A stretch of DNA of 64,000 nt from an uncultured delta proteobacterium (GTDB lineage: Bacteria; Desulfobacterota; RBG-13-43-22), in the NCBI GenBank assembly GCA_963821645.1, contig CAWGEQ010000048.1, positions 44,563 to 108,562 on the forward strand, given 5' to 3'. The translations under genes and the position numbers were made by a program. Under the pieces are notes generated by a model. It saw only the letters and a list, made by a program, of their open reading frames with translations, had not been told where the DNA came from and ran no database searches. The stretch's first letter is position 1, and the number at the start of each line of letters is the position of its first letter. This document shows, piece after piece, positions 3,586 through 64,000 of this stretch.

Positions 3586-4881
3586 GTGGAGTTCATCAAA
3601 CCCGAAAGACTGACGGATTTAGCCGAGGAGAGGAAAGAGGCCCTGCTCAAGAGGTCTATGGAAGACATCTCGGATATTTATGAAGAGACCCGGTCCATTG
3701 TCCATGACATCCAGAAATCAGGGGAGCGGATTATTTTAGAACATTATCGAAAATATAAATCCGATATTCGGCCAAAGGACATCCTGGTCCAGCCCCAAGA
3801 AGTTCAGGCGGCCTATAAACAGGTTGATAAGGCCGTCCAGCAGGCCTTGAAACAAGCGGCCAAAAATATCGAAAAGTTCCATCGAGCCCAATTAGAAAGG
3901 GAGATGTGGGCCATTGAGGTCAGACCGGGGATCTTAGCCGGGAGGGTCAGAAGGTCCATGGAAATCATCGGGGCCTATGTTCCCGGAGGCAAGGCGAATT
4001 ACCCCTCAAGCGTACTTATGAACATTATCCCTGCCCGGGTAGCCGGGGTATCGACCGTTGTGGCCTGCACGCCGCCACAGAAAGGGATGAAGGCCGACCC
4101 GGTCACGATCGTGGCTGCAGATATTGCCGGGGCTGATTATCTATTCAAGGTGGGCGGGCCTTGGGCCATCGCCGGAATGGCCTATGGCACCAAATCCATG
4201 CCCAAGGTGGATAAGATTGTCGGCCCGGGTAATAAATATGTAACCGCGGCCAAGATGGCCGTCTTTGGGATGGTGGATATTGACTCTCCGGCCGGCCCGA
4301 GTGAGGCCCTCATTGTGGCCGACGATACCGCCAGGCCGGAGTGGATGATCTGGGATTTTCTTTCCCAAATCGAACATGATCCGGATGCCGGGGCTGTTTT
4401 GGTGACCCCCTCTCAAAAATTGGCCGAGAAGGTCTGTGAAATGATTAATCGGGAGTTGCCTGGACTGGAAAGGCGGGAAATTATTCAGGCGGCCTTGACA
4501 CGTCATTCCGCGGTCCTGGTTACTTCTACTCTCAAGGAAGCGATCGATTTTGCCAACGCCTATGCTGCCGAACATTTACAGATTGTTACCGAGGACCCCT
4601 GGATCATCCTGCCCATGATAAACCATGCCGGTTCTATTTTCATGGGTCCCTACGCACCGGTTCCGGCGGGCGATTATGCCTCGGGGACCAATCACGTTTT
4701 GCCGACCGGTGGGTGTGCCAGGATGTTTTCCGGTCTCTCAGTGGATGATTTTATCAAAAAGCCGACCTTTCAATACCTAAGCCGGAATGGATTACAGGGT
4801 CTAAAGAAGACGATCACCCTGTTGGCTAAAAAGGAAGGCCTGCCACTTCATGCCCGGGCGATCGAAGAGAGGTTTAAATAA
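3586..4881 (+). CDS. hisD: histidinol dehydrogenase
   Basis: 431-aa ORF with a GTG start behind AAAGGAG. HisD-like motifs include [22 protein letters not shown] and [13 protein letters not shown]. Confidence 0.9.
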
Positions 4882-4887
4882 TAAGAC

Positions 4888-4964
4888 AGGTATAAGGTAT
4901 AAGGTTATAGGTTTTAGGTTCAAGGGAAAGACCGTATACCGTAAACCTTACACCTTAGACCTTG
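4888..4964. repeat. 7-nt-periodic inverted repeat: (AAGGTWY)n arm and (RWACCTT)n arm forming an imperfect long hairpin
   Basis: Left arm is aggtataaggtataaggttataggttttaggttcaagg. Right arm is accgtataccgtaaaccttacaccttagaccttg. It sits between convergent hisD and iorB and belongs to the same family as 32368-32443, 59380-59448 and 62575-62649. Confidence 0.6.
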
Positions 4965-5554
4965 TTTTTATCGGCCGCCTCAAAGCCCAGGTCAAAGGCC
5001 TTCAGATTGATGGCCCATAACTTTTGCTTCAGGTTCATCTTGAGGGTCTCTTTGATTTGATCGGCCGTGACGGGAACGGTATTGCTTTGGACCAAGGCCC
5101 CAAGCATGACCACATTGACGGCCATGGCCGATCCGGCCTCTTCGGCCAGGGCGTCGGCATTCAAGGCGATCAATCGCTTGACCTTCTTTTGAATCAGACC
5201 CAGGGCCTCTTTGATATTCGGATAGACCCCCTTGCCTACGGCTACGGTAAAGGGCATCAAGGGGGTGACATTGGTTATCACCGTCGTCTCATTGGAACAT
5301 TTCCCCATGGCCCGCAAGGTCTCGGAGGGTTCAAAGCCGATCAAAACATCGGCCTCCCCATCGGAAACGATGGAGCTCAAGGCCCCGCCTAAGACCACGG
5401 CCGATTCGACCACACCGCCCCGCTGGGCCATGCCATGAACCTCGCTGACGTTGACCGGAATCCCGGCTAATAAGGCGGCTTCTCCTAAGACTCGGGAGGA
5501 GAGCAGGTTCCCCTGTCCTCCAACTCCGACAAAAACAATCCGTTTGATATCCAT
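4955..5554 (-). CDS. iorB: indolepyruvate:ferredoxin oxidoreductase subunit beta
   Basis: 199 aa with N-terminal VGVGGQGNLL...HGMAQRGG, typical of the IorB/gamma-type 2-oxoacid oxidoreductase domain. It lies directly downstream of iorA. Confidence 0.85.
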   Translation of the reverse strand: MDIKRIVFVGVGGQGNLLSSRVLGEAALLAGIPVNVSEVHGMAQRGGVVESAVVLGGALSSIVSDGEADVLIGFEPSETLRAMGKCSNETTVITNVTPLMPFTVAVGKGVYPNIKEALGLIQKKVKRLIALNADALAEEAGSAMAVNVVMLGALVQSNTVPVTADQIKETLKMNLKQKLWAINLKAFDLGFEAADKNKV

Positions 5555-12034: not shown

Positions 12035-13121
12035 ATGAATGAAGAAATCAGTCGGGTTAAGGATAAATTGAATAAATTAGGAGACTATCTTTGACCTGGC
12101 CCACAAAAAAGAACGGATGGCCTCCCTGGAAAAGGTTATCGCCCAAAACAGCTTCTGGGACAAGCCGGATCAGGCCAGGGTCGTCCTGAAAGAAAGGGGA
12201 AAACTCAGTCAGGTTGTTTCCGAATGGGAACAAACCCGAGCCCAATTAGAGGAAGTAGAGATCCTTCAGGACCTGGGTTCAGCCGAAGACGACCAGGAAA
12301 CCCTGACCGAAGTGGTAACCCGTTTAAAGGATCTTGAGAGGCAATTGGCCCGGATGGAATTTAACAAACTTCTTTCCGGGGAAGAAGATATCAATAATGC
12401 CATCATGGCCATTCATGCCGGTGCCGGCGGCACGGAAGCCCAGGATTGGGCCGAGATGCTGCTCCGCATGTATCTGCGTTGGAGTGAACGGCGGGGGTTT
12501 AAGACCGAGATCCTCGATCAGTTGCCCGGAGACGAAGCCGGTCTCAAAAGTGTGACCTTTACCATCGAAGGGAAATATGCCTACGGCTATCTGCGCTCGG
12601 AGAGCGGGATCCATCGTCTGGTCCGCATCTCTCCTTTTGATGCCGGGGGACGCCGCCACACCTCCTTTGCTTCGGTTTTTGTCTATCCGGAGGTGGAAGA
12701 CGACATCGAGATCGAGATCAATGAGTCCGATGTTCGGGTTGACACCTTCCGGGCCAGCGGGGCCGGTGGACAACATGTCAACAAGACCAGCTCGGCCATC
12801 CGTTTGACCCATATGCCCACGGGAATTGTGGTCCAATGCCAAAACGAGAAATCACAGCACCGCAACAAAGACATGGCTTTTAAGGTCTTGAAATCAAGAC
12901 TCTATGAGTTGGAACTGGAAAAGAAAGAGGAAAAAAAGAAGGAGATCCACGAAGGGCAGGCCGATATTGCCTGGGGAAGTCAGATCCGTTCTTATACCCT
13001 GGCCCCCTACCAGTTGGTGAAGGACCATAGGACTCAATTGGAGATCGGCAATGTGGCTGATGTCCTTGACGGGGGGATCGATCCTTTTATTGAGGCCTTT
13101 TTGTGGAAAAAAAATAAATGA
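12035..13121 (+). CDS. prfB: peptide chain release factor 2, made by programmed +1 frameshift (12035..12091 joined to 12093..13121)
   Basis: A short frame (MNEEISRVKDKLNKLGDYL) ends at CTT TGA C. The +1 frame continues DLAHKKERMASLEKV... through the SPF and GGQ (SGAGGQHVNKT) motifs. Confidence 0.95.
12079..12095 (+). promoter_or_regulatory. prfB autoregulatory +1 frameshift site
   Basis: SD-like AGGAG (12079-12083) upstream of the slippery CTT (12089-12091) and an in-frame TGA (12092-12094) followed by C. Confidence 0.9.
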
Positions 13122-13267
13122 GGTTCAACTTAAACTCGCAGGCCCGCCTGATGCGGCTGACACGAAACATGAAAAGGAGCGTCAAAGGCCCAAAACCAAC
13201 TATGGCGTTCTAGTTTTTCCCTTGTACCTTAAACCTTGAACCGTTATTTTCGGACTAAGGAGGACTG

Positions 13268-21775: not shown

Positions 21776-21969
21776 TTCCTTAACCCAAATCCCCTGTTTT
21801 ATCCCTGTCCATTCCTTTTCCGTATTAAGATCTCATGCCCGCTTGAAGCGGGCACCGACGAAGCATGAAAATAAAACTTAGTATCAACGGGTTAAACGTT
21901 TTTATTCTGAATTCTGACTCCTGAATTCTGGATTCTTGGGTTTTATTTTCGAACTAAGATCCATCCGGA

Positions 21970-31777: not shown

Positions 31778-32335
31778 CTAAGGCAACTGGTATTCTTTGA
31801 TTCCTTCCTCATACAGGTCCCGTCCCTGGGTATCATTGATGACCACGGCCGGAAAATTTTCCACCACCATCCGCCGAATGGCCTCTGGCCCTAATTCCTC
31901 ATAGGCAATGACCTCGGCGGCTTTGATGGCCCGGGAAATCAAGGCCCCGGCCCCGCCGGTAGCCCCGAAATAAACCGCTTTATATTTGACCATGGATTCC
32001 TTGACGGCCGGGGCGCGTTTGCCTTTGCCGATCATGCCCTTCAGACCCAGTTCCATCAACCGGGGTGCATAAGGGTCCATGCGGTAACTGGTGGTCGGCC
32101 CGGCGGCCCCGATCACGCCGCCCGGCTTGGCCGGAGAGGGGCCTACGTAATAGATAACCTGTCCCTTGAGGTCAAAGGGCAGGGGTTTCCCGGCATCCAA
32201 CAGGTCGATTAACCGTTTATGGGCGGCGTCTCTGGCCGAATAAACGACGCCGCTCAAAAAGACCTTGTCGCCTATTTCCAGGGAAGAAACCATTTCATCG
32301 GTTAACGGGGTGGTTAGATAGACTGTTTTAGGCAT
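31778..32335 (-). CDS. class I (Fe-S) fumarate/tartrate hydro-lyase, beta subunit
   Basis: LSGVVYSARDAAHKRL...GPTTSYRMD...GKGKR motifs. The start is set at the internal MPKTVYL. Confidence 0.85.
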   Translation of the reverse strand: MPKTVYLTTPLTDEMVSSLEIGDKVFLSGVVYSARDAAHKRLIDLLDAGKPLPFDLKGQVIYYVGPSPAKPGGVIGAAGPTTSYRMDPYAPRLMELGLKGMIGKGKRAPAVKESMVKYKAVYFGATGGAGALISRAIKAAEVIAYEELGPEAIRRMVVENFPAVVINDTQGRDLYEEGIKEYQLP

Positions 32336-32367
32336 TGGATTTATCCTTATTGTTAGCAAAAAGGTTC

Positions 32368-32443
32368 AAGGTATAAGGTTCAAGGTACAAGTCAAAAATA
32401 AAAGGTTTAAACCGTATACCGTGTACCTTGCACCTTATACCTT
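32368..32443. repeat. AAGGTAT-family hairpin (21/22-bp stem) between the hydro-lyase alpha and beta genes
   Basis: AAGGTATAAGGTTCAAGGTACA (32368-32389) pairs with TGTACCTTGCACCTTATACCTT (32422-32443). The right-arm 20-mer TACCTTGCACCTTATACCTT is identical to 59429-59448. Confidence 0.7.
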
Positions 32444-32447
32444 TATA

Positions 32448-33289
32448 TCACAACGTCACTTCCTTATGCCGGCTGGCATGACACTGCACATTGACCGCCA
32501 CGGGAAGGCTGGCGATATGGCAGGGCAGGAGCCGGATATGAACCGCCAAGGAGGTTGTTCTGCCCCCCAAGCCCTGGGGTCCTATGCCCAGTTTATTGAT
32601 CAACCCAAGGACCTCCTTCTCCAGTTGATCAAGCTCCGGATCAGGATTGGCGGTCCCGAGGGGGCGGAGCAAGGACTTTTTGGCCTGCAGGGCGGCTTGT
32701 TCGAAGGTCCCGCCGATGCCTACGCCGATAATGGTCGGCGGGCAGGGGTTCGGCCCGGCATCCCTTACGGTTTCCACAATTTTTTCCTTGATACCGGCTA
32801 TTCCGGCCGAGGGGGGAGCATAAATAAACGGCTCATGTTTTCACTGCCGCCCCCCTTGGGGACGACCCAGATCTTCAGCCGGTCTCCGGGGACTACATCG
32901 GTGTAGATGACGGCCGGGGTATTATCCCCGGTATTGGCCCGGGAAAAGGGATGGCAGGAGGATTTGCGAAGATACCCCTCGCCGTAGCCCTCACGGACAC
33001 CTTGGTTGACCGCCTCTTTTAGATCTCCGCCGATCAAGTGTAGATCCTGACCGATTTCCAGGAAGATAACGGCCAAACCCGTATCCTGGCACATGGGTAG
33101 ATGCTCTTCTTTGGCGATTCGGGCATTTTCGATCAACTGCCCCAGGATCTCTTTTCCGACCGGAGAAATCTCCTTCTGCAAGGCCTGCTGAAAGCAGAAA
33201 AGGACGTCTTCCCCTAACTCCTCATTGGCTTCGATGGACAACTTTTTGATGGCCCGGGTAATCTCTTTGACATCAAGTTCTCTGATCAT
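32448..33289 (-). CDS. class I (Fe-S) fumarate/tartrate hydro-lyase, alpha subunit, frameshifted in a C6/G6 run (32811-32816)
   Basis: N-part (ORF 32798..33343, start taken at MIRELDV with an AGGAG Shine-Dalgarno sequence) carries LPMCQDTG and KGGGSENMS. C-part (ORF 32448..32777) carries PPTIIGVGIGGT. One extra C would restore ...LFMLPPSAGIAGIKEKI. Confidence 0.8.
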
Positions 33290-33476
33290 CGGATCTCCTG
33301 ATTTTTTTGCAAGATTATCAAAATCAAAACCTATTCCCTTCATTGATTATCAAATTTAAATTGATTTGGCAACCACCTTATTAAGCGGGATAAAAGTTCG
33401 AACGTAACCGCATAAAAATAGGTTAAAAATGAAAAGGCTTGACTTCAATAAAAAATAGTTATATTACATAACAATT

Positions 33477-53213: not shown

Positions 53214-53292
53214 ATCATTCCCGTGAAAACGGGAATCCAGTATTTTTAAACAGTTGAGAATCATCTGGATTCCCGCCTTCGCGGGAATGACG
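53214..53292. repeat. paired REP-like elements in inverted orientation
   Basis: ATCATTCCCGTGAAAACGGGAATCCAG (53214-53240), a 24-nt spacer, then CTGGATTCCCGCCTTCGCGGGAATGACG (53265-53292). The layout matches 60948-61024. Confidence 0.7.
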
Positions 53293-58645: not shown

Positions 58646-59356
58646 TCAAATAAATTTACAGACCCCGACGGGGCAGCGTTTTTCTTTGATGTGGATCTCA
58701 AACTCTTCCCTGAAATTGGTCAAGATAGCCAGAATAATATGGGAGGTCTTACCGGCGAAGGCACAATAGGCCGCCTGCTGCATCAGGGTCATCAGCGATT
58801 CCATCTCCTGAAGGGCATCTTCCGGCGCTCGGCCGTGACTGATGGCTTCAATGAGATCGGAAAGCCTTTGAATACCCAGGCGGCAGGGGACGCATTTGCC
58901 GCAGGATTCACCGTAATGGAACTTGATCAGATAGTCGGCGACCTGAACCATACAGGTGGAGGGGTCCATGACCATAATACAACTATGGTCTTTTTCCCAA
59001 ATCAAGTCGCCCCGGGTGGACTGAAGGGGATTCAGACGCAATAAAGGAAAGAGGATCTTCCCCTTTTGAATCGTCTCTTCCAGAATAAAGGGGACATGGG
59101 CTTCCTGGACCTGTTCATAAAAAAGGCCCATGTGAGGCAAACTCAAGAAAGGTCCCCGGCGGCACGTTCCGCTGCAACCGCATTTGGCCGGCTCAATGAC
59201 TACGGGGATATTCAACCTTTGGGCTTCGGCAATAAGGCCCTTATAAAGGGCTTCTGCCCCACAGCTCGGCTTGGGTCCTTGACCCCGGCAAACCGTTATC
59301 CTTGGGGCCTGGGTAGCCTGGGGCTCCGCGATCAGATTGGTGGATACTGCTGGCAT
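58646..59356 (-). CDS. Fe-S protein fusing a thioredoxin-like [2Fe-2S] (NuoE-type) domain to the NuoF C-terminal [4Fe-4S] domain; no FMN/NADH domain
   Basis: N-terminal VCRG...SCGAE...CGCSGTCRRGP. C-terminal ESCGKCVPCRLG...YCAFAG. The intervening region aligns with the NuoF region just before the cluster (DPSTCMVQVADYL). Confidence 0.7.
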   Translation of the reverse strand: MPAVSTNLIAEPQATQAPRITVCRGQGPKPSCGAEALYKGLIAEAQRLNIPVVIEPAKCGCSGTCRRGPFLSLPHMGLFYEQVQEAHVPFILEETIQKGKILFPLLRLNPLQSTRGDLIWEKDHSCIMVMDPSTCMVQVADYLIKFHYGESCGKCVPCRLGIQRLSDLIEAISHGRAPEDALQEMESLMTLMQQAAYCAFAGKTSHIILAILTNFREEFEIHIKEKRCPVGVCKFI

Positions 59357-59379
59357 ATATATAAACTCCGTTTTGGTTT

Positions 59380-59448
59380 AAGGTATAAGGTGCAAGGTAT
59401 ACGGTATATGGGTTTTCCTTTTACCTTGTACCTTGCACCTTATACCTT
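59380..59448. repeat. AAGGTAT-family hairpin (perfect 20-bp stem) between nuoN and the NuoE/F-like gene
   Basis: AAGGTATAAGGTGCAAGGTA (59380-59399) pairs with TACCTTGCACCTTATACCTT (59429-59448). Confidence 0.75.
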
Positions 59449-59452
59449 TCTT

Positions 59453-60871
59453 TTATGAGATGATCGTCTTACAGGCAGTCCGGGCCATTTCGATAAACCA
59501 GGACGGCAAGGAGCCCATCAGGATGATCGCCAGGATCAACCCATAGTTTAATATTTTATTGGAAAAACTTAAGGACACGACCGGCAGTCCGCCTGGGTCC
59601 TGCCCATAGGCGGCGCGAACGATATTTAGATAGTAATAAATCGAAATGGCCGTATTGACCGCGGCGATAATCACCAGGGCCAGATGTCCCTGATTCAAGG
59701 CCGCCGTGAATAGGAACAATTTGCCGGTGAATCCGGCGGTGGGCGGAATACCGGCCAGGGCAAAGGCCCCCACGGCCAGGGTAAAGGCCAACAAGGGGGA
59801 ACGGCGATAAAGGCCGGAGAGGTCGCTGACCATCACGTTTTCCCCTTCCTGGGAAAGGGAACAGATGACCAGGAAACAGGCCAGATTCATCAAGAGATAA
59901 GCGGCAATGTGATAAATGGCCGCGCCGTAGCCCAGGGCATTCAGGGTCAGGACCCCCAGCATGATATAGCCGGCGTGGGCGATACTGGAATAGGCCAGCA
60001 ACCGCTTAAGGTCTTTCTGGACCAGGGCCGCCAGATTACCGAAGGTCATGGACAGGGCCGAAAGTAAAACCAGAACCTGAATCAGGTCTACCGCTCCTGT
60101 CCCGGCCAGACTGGTAATGCGCAGCAGCAAGGCCACCCCGGCCAATTTGGGCATGGTGGCCACATAGGAGACGGTTTCATTGGCTGCCCCCTGGTAAACA
60201 TCGGGGGTCCAGAATTGAAAGGGTACGACGGCTAATTTAAAGAAAAAGCCGCAGAGAATCAGCAGGAGTCCGATAAGGGCCACCGGCTGGCTGATGATAA
60301 GGGGCATCTTGGTGAGGATGTCCACCAGATAGGTCGATTGGGTGACGCCGAAGATATAGCTCATGCCGAAAATCATGACCCCGGTGGCCGCGGCCCCGAA
60401 TATGATGTATTTGATGGCCGCTTCCATCTGCCCGCCGTGATTCTGTTTTCGGATAGGGATGAGGACATAGAGAGAATAGGAGGACAACTCCATGGCGATA
60501 AAAATAGTCACCAGCTCTACACTGCTGACCATCAACATCAGCCCCAGGGCGCTTAAGCTCAGAAACATAAAAAATTCCGGCAGGAGACGGTCCTCAATGC
60601 TTTTGAACTTCTGGCCCAGGACGATAATTAAAAACAGCCCCAGGCTGATGAGGATCTTAAAAACCTGGGAAAAGAGATCCACCCGGTAGGATTTATAAAA
60701 AAGGTCTCCGCTTATATTCAGGGAACAAAGGCTCAGGATGAGGCCGATGGCGGAAAGAAAAAGGGCCAGACCCTGATTGGTCTTGGCGGACGAAGTCCAT
60801 AAGGATTGGCAAAAAAAGATCAGGGCCATCAACAGCAGAAAGGTTTCCGGTATGAATAACGAGAAATCCAT
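59453..60871 (-). CDS. nuoN: NADH-quinone oxidoreductase subunit N-like antiporter-type subunit
   Basis: 472 aa, ~14 TMS, NuoN/ND2-like motifs (FQFWTPDVYQGA, LLAYSSIAHAGY). Confidence 0.8.
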   Translation of the reverse strand: MDFSLFIPETFLLLMALIFFCQSLWTSSAKTNQGLALFLSAIGLILSLCSLNISGDLFYKSYRVDLFSQVFKILISLGLFLIIVLGQKFKSIEDRLLPEFFMFLSLSALGLMLMVSSVELVTIFIAMELSSYSLYVLIPIRKQNHGGQMEAAIKYIIFGAAATGVMIFGMSYIFGVTQSTYLVDILTKMPLIISQPVALIGLLLILCGFFFKLAVVPFQFWTPDVYQGAANETVSYVATMPKLAGVALLLRITSLAGTGAVDLIQVLVLLSALSMTFGNLAALVQKDLKRLLAYSSIAHAGYIMLGVLTLNALGYGAAIYHIAAYLLMNLACFLVICSLSQEGENVMVSDLSGLYRRSPLLAFTLAVGAFALAGIPPTAGFTGKLFLFTAALNQGHLALVIIAAVNTAISIYYYLNIVRAAYGQDPGGLPVVSLSFSNKILNYGLILAIILMGSLPSWFIEMARTACKTIIS

Positions 60872-60947
60872 TATGATTCGTTCCTTAGACTTATTATAAA
60901 TCCGATAAAGTTGACAATTCCGTAATGTTCGAAAGCACTCATTTTCG

Positions 60948-61024
60948 CCATTCCCTGAAAAGGGGAATCCTGCGTTTCTTGTCGGCTTCGTTGGTCTGGA
61001 TTCCCGCCTGTCGCTGGAATGACG
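60948..61024. repeat. paired REP-like elements inside the nuoM-nuoN intergenic space
   Basis: GCCATTCCCTGAAAAGGGGAATCCTG (60948-60972), a 23-nt spacer, then CTGGATTCCCGCCTGTCGCTGGAATGACG (60996-61024). Confidence 0.7.
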
Positions 61025-61040
61025 ACTTCTTGCGACTTCA

Positions 61041-62541
61041 TCATTTCACTAAAGCCAAGGCACTTCCGGCCTGAACCTGCTTGATCAAATGATCCACACT
61101 GGCGTGCATAACATCCAAAAATGGGGTCGGGGCAAAGCCGATCCACAAAACGAAAACGGCCAGGGGGACTAAATAAACGATCTCCCGGGCATTAAGATCG
61201 AAAAAGTGATGGGTCCCTAAGTTGGGTCCCCAGGCGATCTTTTGGAGCAAGCGGAGCATATAGGCCGCCGCTAAAACCACCCCGGGAATGGACAGGGCAC
61301 CCACTATTTTATTGTTTAAAAAGGTGCCGATCAAGACCAGCAGCTCGCCCACAAAACTGTTGGTTCCGGGAAAGGCCATGGAGGACAGTGAAAAAAAGCC
61401 CAAAAACCCGATATAATAGGGCATGATCTTGCTGAGGCCGGAATTGTCGCTGATCTCACGGCTGTGGGTCCTTTCATAAATAATACCCACGCAGAGAAAG
61501 AGGGCCCCGGTGGTGATCCCGTGATTGATCATCTGTAAGATGGCCCCTTCCATCCCCTGTTTGTTGAACAGGAAGATGCCCAGGGTGACAAACCCCATGT
61601 GGGCCACGCTGGAATAGGCGATCAATTTTTTCATGTCACTTTGCCCCAGGGCCACATATCCGCCGTAGATGATGGAGATGATGGACATCCAGAGGAGATA
61701 GGGGGCGAAGTAAAGGCTGGCCTGGGGGGTGATGGGCAGACAAAAACGGACAAAGCCGTAGGTGCCCATTTTCAGCAATATGCTGGCCAGCAAGACACTG
61801 CCGGCGGTCGGGGCCTGCACATGGGCGGCCGGCAACCAGGTATGAAAGGGGGCCATGGGGACCTTGATGGCAAAGGCGATTCCAAAAGCCAGAAAGATCC
61901 AGAATTGAAAGGCGAATGAATAGTGATGGGTCATTAGCTCCGGAATACTAAAGGTCCCGGCCGCCAGGTAAAGGGCGATCATGGCCACCATGAGGAAAAC
62001 GCTGCCGGCCATGGTGTAGATAAAGAACTTAATCGAGGCGTAGACCTTTTCCGGGCCTCCCCAGACGGCGATCAATAAATACATGGGGACCAGCATGGCC
62101 TCCCAGAAAATATAAAAAAGAACGAAATCCAGGGCGGAGAAGACCCCGACGCAGGCCGTTTCCATGAAGAGGAGACAGATGTGGAATTCCTTGACCCGTT
62201 TCTCGATGTATTTCCAGGAGGCCAGAACGCAGATGGGGGTGAGCAAGGTGCTCAGACAGGACCAGAAGGAGGCTGATGCCGTCGACCCCCAGGGTATAAT
62301 TGATTTTGAACATGGGGATCCAGGGGGCATGCTCGGCAAATTGATATTTATAGGTCGCCAGGTCGAAATTGAAGTAAAGGGGCAAAGAGAGAAAAAAAGC
62401 CGCCAGACTGACGAGCAAGGTCCAGATCCTGGCCGCTTTTTCATTTTTGAATAGAAAAAGGACCACGGCCCCGGCCAGGGGCAAAAAGATCAAGGTGCTT
62501 AAAATCGGGTAACTAAGCTGATTGGGGATAAGAAAATCCAT
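61041..62541 (-). CDS. nuoM: NADH-quinone oxidoreductase subunit M-like antiporter-type subunit, frameshifted near 62255-62270
   Basis: The N-terminus MDFLIPNQLSYPILSTLIFLPL...YTLGVDGISLLLVL (ORF 62029..62565) continues in ORF 61041..62444 as LSTLLTPICVLASW...FYIFWEAMLVPMYLLI...HTWLPAAHVQAPTAGSV...LIAYSSVAHMGF. Confidence 0.8.
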
Positions 62542-62574
62542 GGTTGTATATTTCCCTAGTAACAATAAATATCG

Positions 62575-62649
62575 GTTTACGGTCTAAGGTTTACGGTCCA
62601 CGGTTGGTCTAAGGTCAAAGGTTTTGCCTTGCGCCTTGAACCTTGCACC
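62575..62649. repeat. AAGGTAT-family (ACGGT/AAGGT variant) inverted repeat between the nuoL-like and nuoM genes
   Basis: Left arm ggtttacggtctaaggtttacggtccacggttggtctaaggtcaaagg. Right arm gccttgcgccttgaaccttgcacc. Confidence 0.6.
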
Positions 62650-62655
62650 TGTTAT

Positions 62656-64000
62656 TTATAGAAACCAATAGATCCCCACGATGGCAAAGATGATCAGAAT
62701 GGCCAGGGCCAAGTAATTCTGGATGTTACCGGTTTGGACCCGGCGTACTTTATTCCCTATTCCCTGGGTACCATAGGCGACATTATCGACCACCCCATCG
62801 ATCCCCCAGCGGTCAAACCAGGCAAAGAAGCCGGCAAAGGCCATCAAGGATTTAAGGGCCAGACTCCGGTAGAGTTCTCCCCAACCGGTATCAAAACCCT
62901 GGATGAATTTCCGGTCGAACCACATAAAACCTGGCTAGCATTTTCCGGTAAGTCCAGTCAAAATCCAGATTGATTTTGGCTTCCGGCTGGTCAGCCGCTT
63001 AAGGAGCAGAAAGAATCCCAATCCGGTAAAGAGCAGGATCTGGATGGTCTCCGAGAGATGGGGGAGATTATAGGGATGGAATTCCGCGGCGGCCTCTTTA
63101 AAAGGCAGCAGATCATACAAAACTTTGGGATAAACCCCGATCAGCAAGCAGAGGAAAGAGGTAATACCCATGGCCCAGAGCATATTTTCCGGCGGTTCCT
63201 TGGGCTTCAACCCCGAGTCTTTTCCGAACCAGGCGAAATAGGGGAGTTTCAAGCCCACAGAAAGGAAGGTACCGACCGAGGCTAAAAGCATCAGGACCAT
63301 CAGCACCGGATGATGGGACTCGCCGGCCCCGGAAATGATCATGGATTTGCTGACAAAGCCGCTGAAAAGAGGCGAAGCCGGATATAGAGATCCCTCCTAC
63401 TACATAGAAGATCAAGGGTGAGGGGCATATATTTGTAAAGACCGCCCAATTTATTTAATTTGGAGGTCCCGGTCATCATCAGAACCGAACCGGCCCCCAT
63501 AAACAACAAGGCCTTGTAAAGGATATGGGCATAGGCATGGGCGCAGGCCCCGTTTAAGGCCAGTTCCGTGCCGATTCCGACACCGGCCACCATGTAACCC
63601 ACCTGGCTGATGATGTGATAGGAAAGGATGCGGCGCATGTCGTTTTCGATGGTGGCGTAACAGACCCCGTAGACGGTCATGACCGTACCCATCACGGCCA
63701 GGACATCATAGCCGGGGAAGGCCCGGGCCAGGACATAGATGGCCGTCTTGGTGGTAAAGGCGCACATAAAGACCGCCCCGGTGACCGTGGCTTCCGGATA
63801 GGCATCGGGCAGCCAGGCATGGAGCGGAAAGACGGCGGCATTCAAGGCAAAACCGGCCAGGATCAGATATTCGGCCAAACCGGCGCTGGCCTTGGGGACG
63901 AGCTCAAAGGCCATACTGCCGGTATTCTGGTAATGTAAAAAGATGCCGGCCAAAAGCAGCAGACCGCCGAAGATGTGCATCAACAGATAGCGGAACCCGG
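62656..64000 (-). CDS. NuoL/MrpD-like antiporter-type subunit; at least 3 frameshifts; 5' end outside the window
   Basis: Pieces 63339..63983 (HAWLPDAYPEATVTGAVF, ILSYHIISQVGYM), 63113..63415 and 62935..63342 (MIISGAGESHH...), and 62656..62925 (NuoL-type C-terminus IDGVVDNVA...RRVQTGNIQNYL) read as one protein across frames. Confidence 0.7.

Follow-up and report, generated by a model that had tools for sequence, protein, structure and literature searches.

The 64-kb window analysed here (the whole 64,000-nt stretch of contig CAWGEQ010000048.1) carries members of a dispersed family of hairpins of the form AAGGTNN…NNACCTT, in which both arms are tandem arrays of 7-nt units. We propose, with a probability of roughly 60%, that these hairpins are small palindromic insertion cassettes without their gene; the full form carries a gene of the PF05635/TIGR02436 family (S23p/Avd-like) between its arms. 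Both forms occupy the space from a stop codon to the following ribosome-binding site, or that between two convergent stop codons, and at hot-spot junctions one takes the place of another or is nested inside it. An initial annotation, made from the sequence of the window alone, had described four hairpins and a half-element, and all five sequences were found at the positions it gave. What it had missed is that many other words share the architecture of AAGGT and that the elements are probably gene-less counterparts of PF05635 cassettes.

The window comes from a 3.03-Mb metagenome-assembled genome (MAG) of 53 contigs (76% complete; Desulfobaccales-like; labelled G000), whose closest named relatives are uncultured 'delta proteobacterium' or Thermodesulfobacteriota MAGs, with Desulfobacca at about 70% FumB identity. 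Together with 13 congeners (G001-G013) it forms a genus set of 14 genomes; L numbers denote fetched loci of relatives. A strict scan of the whole genome, in which a run of AGGTnnn had to be followed by a run of ACCTnnn at most 120 nt on, returned about 45 loci and none in the reverse order. A relaxed scan enlarged the set to 53 AAGGTNN…NNACCTT hairpins, again with none in the reverse order, together with 35 and 38 'solo' arms, many of which have a degenerate or heterologous partner. Folding energies of the sense-strand RNA were compared with dinucleotide shuffles and are given as z. For the 47 elements of up to 160 nt, z was below -3 in all except one (46/47; median 30 bp, -36 kcal/mol), and the predicted stem reached at least 22 bp in 43 of them. 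Arms ranged from 3 to 8 units, those of four (41 arms) and five units (38 arms) being the commonest. The unit logo reads A (87%), A (76%), G, G, T, N, Y, where GGT was demanded by the scan itself. The pattern AAGGTNNAAGGTNNAAGGT was present in 13/13 congeners with 1-104 matches per strand, compared with 0-3 in other genera of the family, and a reversed-pattern control across genomes gave about zero. The family is thus real, far beyond chance and statistically robust, and the census bears out the dispersed family with an internal 7-nt period that had been annotated in the window. In other families of the phylum, AAGGTGA/AAGGTCA variants are abundant in G034, and G030 has two sites, one of them a contig end, with long tandem arrays of pure AAGGTGA.

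By crude calls of open reading frames (ORFs), 41 of the 53 hairpins are found between co-directional genes, eight between convergent and one between divergent genes, and three fall in short dubious ORFs. Divergent gaps make up 17% of the background, and the binomial probability of at most one divergent case in 50 is about 1e-3. The 5' edge usually follows the upstream stop codon by 0-12 nt (mode 3-6 nt), also in long gaps, and the element ends just before the next ribosome-binding site, leaving about 16-30 nt for it at the 3' edge. The annotated position in short, chiefly intra-operonic gaps beside stop and start codons therefore holds genome-wide. The annotated lack of U-tracts does not: a U5 run follows the 3' arm of elements 1 and 2 (it is absent in element 3), and T runs of at least four were counted at 16/42 sense ends and 17/42 antisense ends, which is about 40% of copies at each end.

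Turning to repeats of any word, Tandem Repeats Finder (TRF) reported period 7 as the commonest in the genome, with 347 arrays (216 intergenic), well ahead of period 8 (156) and period 6 (109). Word families include AAGGTNN, CGGAGTT, ATCCAGT, CGATATT, CAGCTTT and CGGCGTT, several of which also form inverted pairs. PF05635 was detected in 14/14 genomes of the genus (4-17 matches each) and in 1/14 control genomes. Inverted arrays enclose all four PF05635 genes of G000, and no two of these genes have the same word (Table 1). Thirty further loci of the genus have this layout, and nearly all of 31 PF05635 loci carry inverted arrays on their flanks, with 16 words and periods of 7, 8 and 9. On the PF05635 protein tree these 16 words need 15 changes, the minimum possible, and the AAGGTNN clade is sister to AAGGCGC (97% in the SH-like approximate likelihood ratio test, SH-aLRT). 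Cassettes that share a word (AAGGATTC, CAGAAKC) lie in outer flanks that are unrelated to each other, so gene and arms move as one unit.

The 118-aa protein of the AAGGT cassette matches TIGR02436 ('four helix bundle protein') at 1e-32 and the pentameric Xanthomonas XCC0516 structure 2GSC at 6e-17. Genes of its clade are always located at guaB/guaA (G000, G006, G011, G012 and G007; the guaA gap of G013 was not recovered). The gene is intact in G000 and G006; the copies of G011 and G012 contain an in-frame TGA, and G007 has a truncated copy. A ratio of nonsynonymous to synonymous substitutions (dN/dS) of 0.095 between G000 and G006 shows purifying selection.

The same guaB/guaA gap is occupied in several ways across the genus. 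Besides the AAGGT cassette in five genomes, it holds a CGTTCG cassette in G010 and G003 and a gene-less CGTTCG hairpin in G001, and for this word both forms are seen at one orthologous site. For AAGGT, gene-less and gene-bearing forms share only their inner boundaries (AAGGAAACC / TTTTCCT). In G005 (L153), a GAGTTCG-armed PF05635 cassette is nested within the arms of a CGTTCG hairpin, with partial versions in G004 and G009, which suggests insertion into the centre of existing hairpins. Judged from these states, gene-less hairpins and full cassettes would thus be two interchangeable forms of a single type of element, and a new cassette may land in the centre of a hairpin.

All four junctions that hold hairpins in the window are hot spots of gain, loss and replacement. 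The fumA/fumB gap measures 10-20 nt in distant relatives; AAGGT hairpins occupy it in the window and in L002, and GTTCGGN-type heptamers in L004, L005 and L007. L001 has flanks that are 96% identical to those of the window and an unrelated 160-nt insert, the alignment stopping exactly at the stop codon at 32448 and at 32361. The gap between nuoN and the NuoF-like gene was compared in 14 genomes: it is empty in G006, G002 and G008, where TAA is directly followed by the CGGAG ribosome-binding site, carries AAGGT hairpins in G000, G013, G005, G003 and G011, and in the other six contains octamer arrays of AAGGATTC, where the 3' side is mostly made up of CCGAACG heptamers. In every case the insert is bounded exactly by the stop codon on one side and the ACGGAG ribosome-binding site on the other. 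AAGGT-type elements fill the nuoL/nuoM gap in at least six genomes (with orthologues of element 4 in G009, G013, G005, G010 and G007), GGCTATA-type arrays in G008, G011 and G004, and the gap is empty in G003 and G001. At the convergent POR-gamma/hisD gap, a heptamer hairpin with T-rich tails was found in 13/13 congeners examined; it is of the AAGGT type in 7/14 genomes of the genus including G000, with heavy turnover of units and a conserved core.

Such junctions could also be explained by punctuation selected by the host, that is, stabiliser or attenuator hairpins and bidirectional terminators arising in situ by 7-nt slippage, with PF05635 genes merely inserted into them. This is unlikely in our view, although several points speak for it: heptanucleotides are the commonest long class of simple sequence repeats (SSRs) in prokaryotes, with slippage as the proposed origin (Mrazek 2007, as cited in PMC4679880), arrays are abundant in genomes without the cognate gene, about 40% of copies have terminal T runs, and the POR-gamma/hisD gap contains a hairpin with a T-rich tail in all 13 congeners examined. 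Furthermore, a perfect 17-unit ACCTTGA tandem array outside the window (G000 C28:33229-33344) shows that the unit can also grow as a plain microsatellite. However, slippage alone leaves unexplained the strict order of AAGGT before ACCTT (53 vs 0), the fixed core with free NN, the peak of arm length at 4-5 units, the perfect congruence of word and protein, which includes cassettes at unrelated sites, and the clean replacement of words between genomes with 96% identical flanks.

Comparison of the arms gave no sign of copy-specific complementarity: pairing of an arm with its own partner was as strong as with arms of other elements (-1.120 vs -1.117 kcal/nt, p = 0.50), and the match at the variable positions was equally similar (0.677 vs 0.672). 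Compensatory changes were sought in orthologous elements and none were found, the differences consisting of unit turnover. Therefore, the conserved features are the 5-nt core, the 7-nt phasing, the number of about 4-5 units per arm and the polarity with the purine-rich arm first, and not the individual base pairs. Such a pattern would fit better with recognition of the word or with homogenisation than with selection on the stem alone. The protein recognising AAGGT that the initial annotation had considered is compatible with the data, namely the invariant core, the uncompensated drift at NN and a word that tracks the phylogeny of the associated pentameric-family protein.

The invariant core, the fixed phasing and the missing covariation of the stem would also suit DNA or RNA binding arrays for a global regulator or nucleoid protein of the host (IHF/HU-, CsrA- or S1-like) that is unrelated to PF05635, with AAGG/AGGT mimicking the Shine-Dalgarno (SD) sequence and ACCTT the anti-SD sequence. 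Similar proposals exist for the paired heptanucleotide sites of Geobacter (PMC2700814) and for the TAACTGA repeats (PMC4679880), and the 5' words AAGGT, AAGGATTC and CGGAGTT are SD-like, CGGAGTT being the local ribosome-binding-site motif ACGGAGTT. We nevertheless regard this explanation as quite improbable: at least 16 unrelated words share one architecture in one genus, which would need many regulators or a sequence-blind one, GAATATC, GATACTG and CAGAAGC are not SD-like, and words swap at the same junction without evident consequence. A family of repetitive extragenic palindromes (REPs) or bacterial interspersed mosaic elements (BIMEs) moved by a REP-associated tyrosine transposase (RAYT, of the IS200/IS605 Y1 type), or MITEs (miniature inverted-repeat transposable elements) of a DNA transposon, would account for dispersed extragenic palindromes with presence/absence polymorphism between relatives, and Y1_Tnp genes occur in 14/14 genomes; yet it is very improbable, given that no heptamer arrays surround three Y1_Tnp loci of this genome or 12 of the genus, that a conserved GTAG/CTAC head and a target-site duplication at filled versus empty sites are lacking, that the arms are internally periodic and variable in length, and that PF05635 is the only gene consistently found between such arms, with no transposase gene there. 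The annotated distinction from classical REPs is in line with this lack of a RAYT link and with Rfam, which gave no matches at the gathering threshold across the window and, at a relaxed threshold near the half-element, a chance-level match only.

If the hairpins are gene-less cassettes, they would be transcribed together with their host operons, and their RNA would form imperfect stems of about 30 bp. These stems, by analogy with the S23p-bearing intervening sequences (IVSs) of 23S rRNA, may be substrates of RNase III, which would cut or stabilise the polycistronic mRNA, and copies ending in a U run could act as (bidirectional) terminators. The pentameric PF05635 protein would recognise the repeated core word of its own arms.

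Several observations weigh against the cassette reading. No mobility enzyme was identified for the cassettes, and a comparison of filled and empty sites (TAA/CGGAG) gave no clear target-site duplication beyond a possible AA. The congruence of word and protein is partly due to vertical inheritance at shared sites. Arrays do not need a resident cognate gene, as G009 and G005 have 100-180 pattern matches and no AAGGT-clade gene, and the loops of gene-less copies lie with or against host transcription without preference (11 vs 13). The POR-gamma/hisD gap is occupied in every genome examined, which could reflect selection by the host for any hairpin and not selfish spread. Finally, the 23S rRNA genes at L163-L166 (G009, G008, G013 and G007) exceed the Rfam consensus model by 215-365 nt, mainly through one insert of about 120 nt in G009, G008 and G013 and about 250 nt in G007 with the ends GCTTCAC…GTGAAG; these inserts of the genus (about 120-370 nt) are gene-less and IVS-like and contain neither heptamers nor an ORF.

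A wider generalisation is possible, and we put it forward only tentatively: PF05635 pentamers and inverted arrays of 4-5 words (7-9 nt) might form a single cis/trans system of widespread, IVS-like selfish cassettes, in which each protein lineage reads its own core word. These cassettes would colonise the space behind stop codons as well as rRNA helices, their gene-less remnants would be the heptamer repeats of cyanobacteria (short tandemly repeated repetitive sequences, STRR), Xanthomonas and Geobacter, and hosts would thereby gain RNase III sites and terminators.

The individual members in the window and the PF05635 genes of the genome are listed in Table 1. The annotated hairpin structure holds for elements 1-3, which fold far better than shuffles: -30.6 kcal/mol with z = -4.7 for element 1 (4880-4970), -31.9 kcal/mol with z = -5.8 for element 2 (32355-32450) and -40.1 kcal/mol with z = -10.4 for element 3 (59370-59456). 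The degenerate element 4 (62566-62656; z = -0.9, no better than shuffles) is a weak hairpin, whose CGGT-rich and GCCTT-rich arms pair poorly. A repeat search delimited arms of 22 nt with 95% complementarity in element 2 (32368-32389/32422-32443) and of 32 nt with 88% complementarity in element 3 (59380-59411/59417-59448), and the annotated stem sizes of 21/22 bp and 20/20 bp, respectively, were reproduced. The 20-mer TACCTTGCACCTTATACCTT is indeed common to both (32424-32443 and 59429-59448). It is probably weak evidence of recent copying, because the arms draw on about eight common units and pair just as well with those of other copies.

Table 1. Elements and host operons of the window, and PF05635 genes of the source genome (positions refer to the window unless a contig of G000 is given).
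Feature	Position	Strand	Description
Element 1	4887..4963		AAGGT-type hairpin between convergent hisD (3586-4881, +) and POR gamma (4955-5554, -)
Element 1, 5' array	4887-4926		CAGGTAT AAGGTAT AAGGTTA TAGGTTT TAGGTTC AAGGG
Element 1, 3' array	4931-4963		ACCGTAT ACCGTAA ACCTTAC ACCTTAG ACCTT; T5 run after arm
Half-element	13219..13243	-	lone AAGGT array, no ACCTT partner
Second palindromic module, copy	13118..13178	-	TTTTCATGYTTCGTG…CATGAGGGTTTA-type; comes after the half-element on the - strand
Element 2	32361..32443		between fumarate hydratase alpha stop (32448) and beta start (~32335), both - strand
Element 2, 5' array	32361-32391		AAGGTTC AAGGTAT AAGGTTC AAGGTAC AAG; loop ~20 nt
Element 2, 3' array	32411-32443		ACCGTAT ACCGTGT ACCTTGC ACCTTAT ACCTT
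Host operon of element 2	31778..33343	-	fumarate hydratase beta 31778-32335; alpha 32448-33343, two ORFs by frame break
Element 3	59373..59448		between nuoN stop (59453) and NuoF-like start (59356), - strand
Element 3, 5' array	to 59411		AAGGTAT AAGGTGC AAGGTAT ACGGTAT ATGG; apex GGGTTTTCC
Element 3, 3' array	59417-59448
Element 4	62575..62649		degenerate AAGGT-type, arms unequal: ~7 CGGT/AGGT vs 4 GCCTT/ACCTT units; between nuoL-like fragments and frameshifted nuoM (both -)
Host nuo-type operon of elements 3 and 4	58646..63998	-	NuoF-like 58646-59356, nuoN 59453-60871, nuoM 61041 to ~62565, nuoL-like fragments 62656-63998
AAGGT-armed PF05635 gene	C39:34744-35100		between guaB and guaA; 5' array starts at guaB stop codon
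TTAGCGA/AGCTGAA arrays around PF05635 pseudogene	C39:41117-41418
TAGGGTG-armed PF05635 gene	C16
GAATATC-armed PF05635 gene	C51

At element 1, the end of the POR-gamma ORF and its stop codon lie inside the 3' arm (4955-4963; …AAGGTCTAA on the - strand), so the last codons and the stop of this gene are supplied by the element. In relatives, the POR-gamma stop is located just ahead of the array and not within it. The nuoL/nuoM junction given for element 4 in the initial annotation is right once frameshifts are allowed for, with the reservation that the flanking genes are fragmented, as is also the case at element 2. The fumA, nuoM and nuoL-like genes are each split over two to three reading frames and are single ORFs in relatives (nuoM 501-515 aa); these frame breaks more probably reflect indel errors in the assembly than true pseudogenes.

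The half-element does not fold and is an instance of a recurrent composite, in which an AAGGT 5' arm is followed by GGAAAAAC… and a TTTTCATG module. The latter belongs to a second palindromic module of about 50 nt, TATTTTCATG(C/T)TTCGTGGYGCCCC…GGGGCATGAGGGTTTAATACGAAAATA, with a further copy in the window at 21832-21870 (-) and at least 51 strict copies genome-wide, mostly intergenic and without an Rfam match. In 31% of cases a period-7/8 array is found no more than 40 nt away from this module, compared with 11% for random intergenic sequence, and the module often comes after an AAGGT 5' arm, where the ACCTT arm would be. A CAGAATC-type array, cccaagaatccagaattcaggagtcagaattcagaat, adjoins the TTTTCATG module at 21905-21935 (-) of the window, and the same word brackets PF05635 genes in G012, G007, G010 and G011. 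A third dispersed repeat family is represented by the inverted repeat TCATTCCCGTGAAAACGGGAATCCAG / CTGGATTCCCGCCTTCGCGGGAATGA at 53215-53290 of the window, with related 'GGAATCC…cattcccg' elements at fumA/fumB of L002, at nuoL/nuoM of G006 and in the 23S insert of G007.

To our knowledge, tandem heptanucleotide repeats, known from the intergenic DNA of bacteria since 1990 (STRR, Xanthomonas GGGAATC, Geobacter 'global regulator sites'), have no accepted origin or function, and we know of no function for the S23p or '23S rRNA IVS protein' family despite its solved structure. In this genus, the heptamer repeats and the S23p-family gene appear as one unit, with intermediates at orthologous sites that comprise empty, hairpin, cassette, decayed and nested states. 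Two old questions are thereby directly testable, namely the binding of the protein to its own word and the cutting of the stem by RNase III. We predict that the elements reshape the processing of operon mRNAs in genes of core metabolism (nuo, fumarase, gua, his). The AAGGT family joins a class of heptamer hairpins previously reported from Xanthomonas, Nostoc and Geobacter. Its connection with PF05635 cassettes outside rRNA is undescribed in the literature searched, where an incidental remark on Coxiella was all that linked heptamer repeats to PF05635, no general link having been found. Of the refuting outcome named in the initial annotation, a match to a described REP/BIME-type family of known behaviour, half applies: similar convergent heptamer arrays near stop codons are on record from Xanthomonas and Nostoc (PMC4692102) and from Geobacter (PMC2700814), but no behaviour is known for them.

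Among the known systems, REP/BIME elements resemble the hairpins in being extragenic palindromes, located at the ends of operons and in gaps that are transcribed, in varying between strains and in their presumed roles in mRNA stability and termination. In contrast to these, the arms described here are tandem arrays with no GTAG head and no RAYT, and the associated gene encodes a four-helix-bundle protein instead of a transposase. The TAACTGA repeats of marine Beggiatoaceae are likewise intergenic heptamer arrays (2-6 units) beside translation signals with a patchy distribution across phyla. They occur as 169 direct sets versus one inverted set just upstream of start codons (MacGregor 2015, PMC4679880), whereas the arrays of this genus are inverted pairs that abut stop codons. 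Also of a deltaproteobacterial lineage, Geobacter metallireducens has pairs of five tandem MTYCTGA heptanucleotides, drawn as strand-switching, with one pair between proB and proA, and a second family, GGACCGG x4, of 49 copies (Aklujkar et al. 2009, PMC2700814). The paired arrays and the intra-operon copy are shared features; the words differ, and the Geobacter elements were proposed as sites for IHF/HU-type regulators, with no gene noted and some copies intragenic.

The heptamers GGGAATC of Xanthomonas and GGGGAYT of Nostoc (STRR-type) are intergenic, overlap a stop codon or lie at most 50 bp from it, and are transcribed (Rehm et al. 2015, PMC4692102). These repeats are overrepresented in co-directional gaps and underrepresented in divergent gaps, with 70-75 convergent pairs in each Xanthomonas genome (PMC4692102). 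The elements of this genus agree with them in having 7-nt intergenic units near stop codons in co-directional gaps, often as convergent pairs, and differ in being degenerate at two positions of the unit. The Xanthomonas and Nostoc repeats were read as G-quadruplex-forming SSRs (PMC4692102); AAGGTNN has GG doublets only and does not qualify as a G-quadruplex-forming unit. A link to PF05635 is not made in that article, which does not once use the terms 'intervening' or 'four helix'.

PF05635 is homologous to Avd of diversity-generating retroelements (DGRs), a pentameric four-helix bundle that binds nucleic acid and a partner enzyme (PMC10053308), and the cassette protein has a weak match to NF033474. 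A DGR was rejected: the match reached 21 bits against the equivalog cut-off of 80 bits, and no reverse transcriptase, template or variable repeat lies beside the cassette, which is flanked by guaB and guaA. The S23p-bearing IVSs of 23S rRNA, known from Coxiella burnetii and Leptospira, combine a long stem of terminal inverted repeats, tandem heptamers on the 5' side and a PF05635-family ORF in the loop (PMC4990558). In Coxiella, a 28-bp terminal stem with 3-4 tandem GACAGAT heptamers at the 5' side accompanies the S23p ORF, and the first of these repeats is where RNase III cleaves; the S23p protein of Xanthomonas forms a homopentamer (PMC4990558). An IVS proper was ruled out, all copies in the window being located between protein-coding genes: unlike IVSs, which sit in helix 25 or 45 of 23S rRNA, the elements occupy mRNA intergenic gaps behind stop codons, dozens of gene-less copies occur per genome, and both arms are whole heptamer arrays. 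RNase III cleavage, demonstrated for IVSs, would be expected here by analogy. With IVSs, which are held to be selfish, the elements share gene-less and decaying forms and a protein of the pentameric four-helix-bundle family (2GSC).

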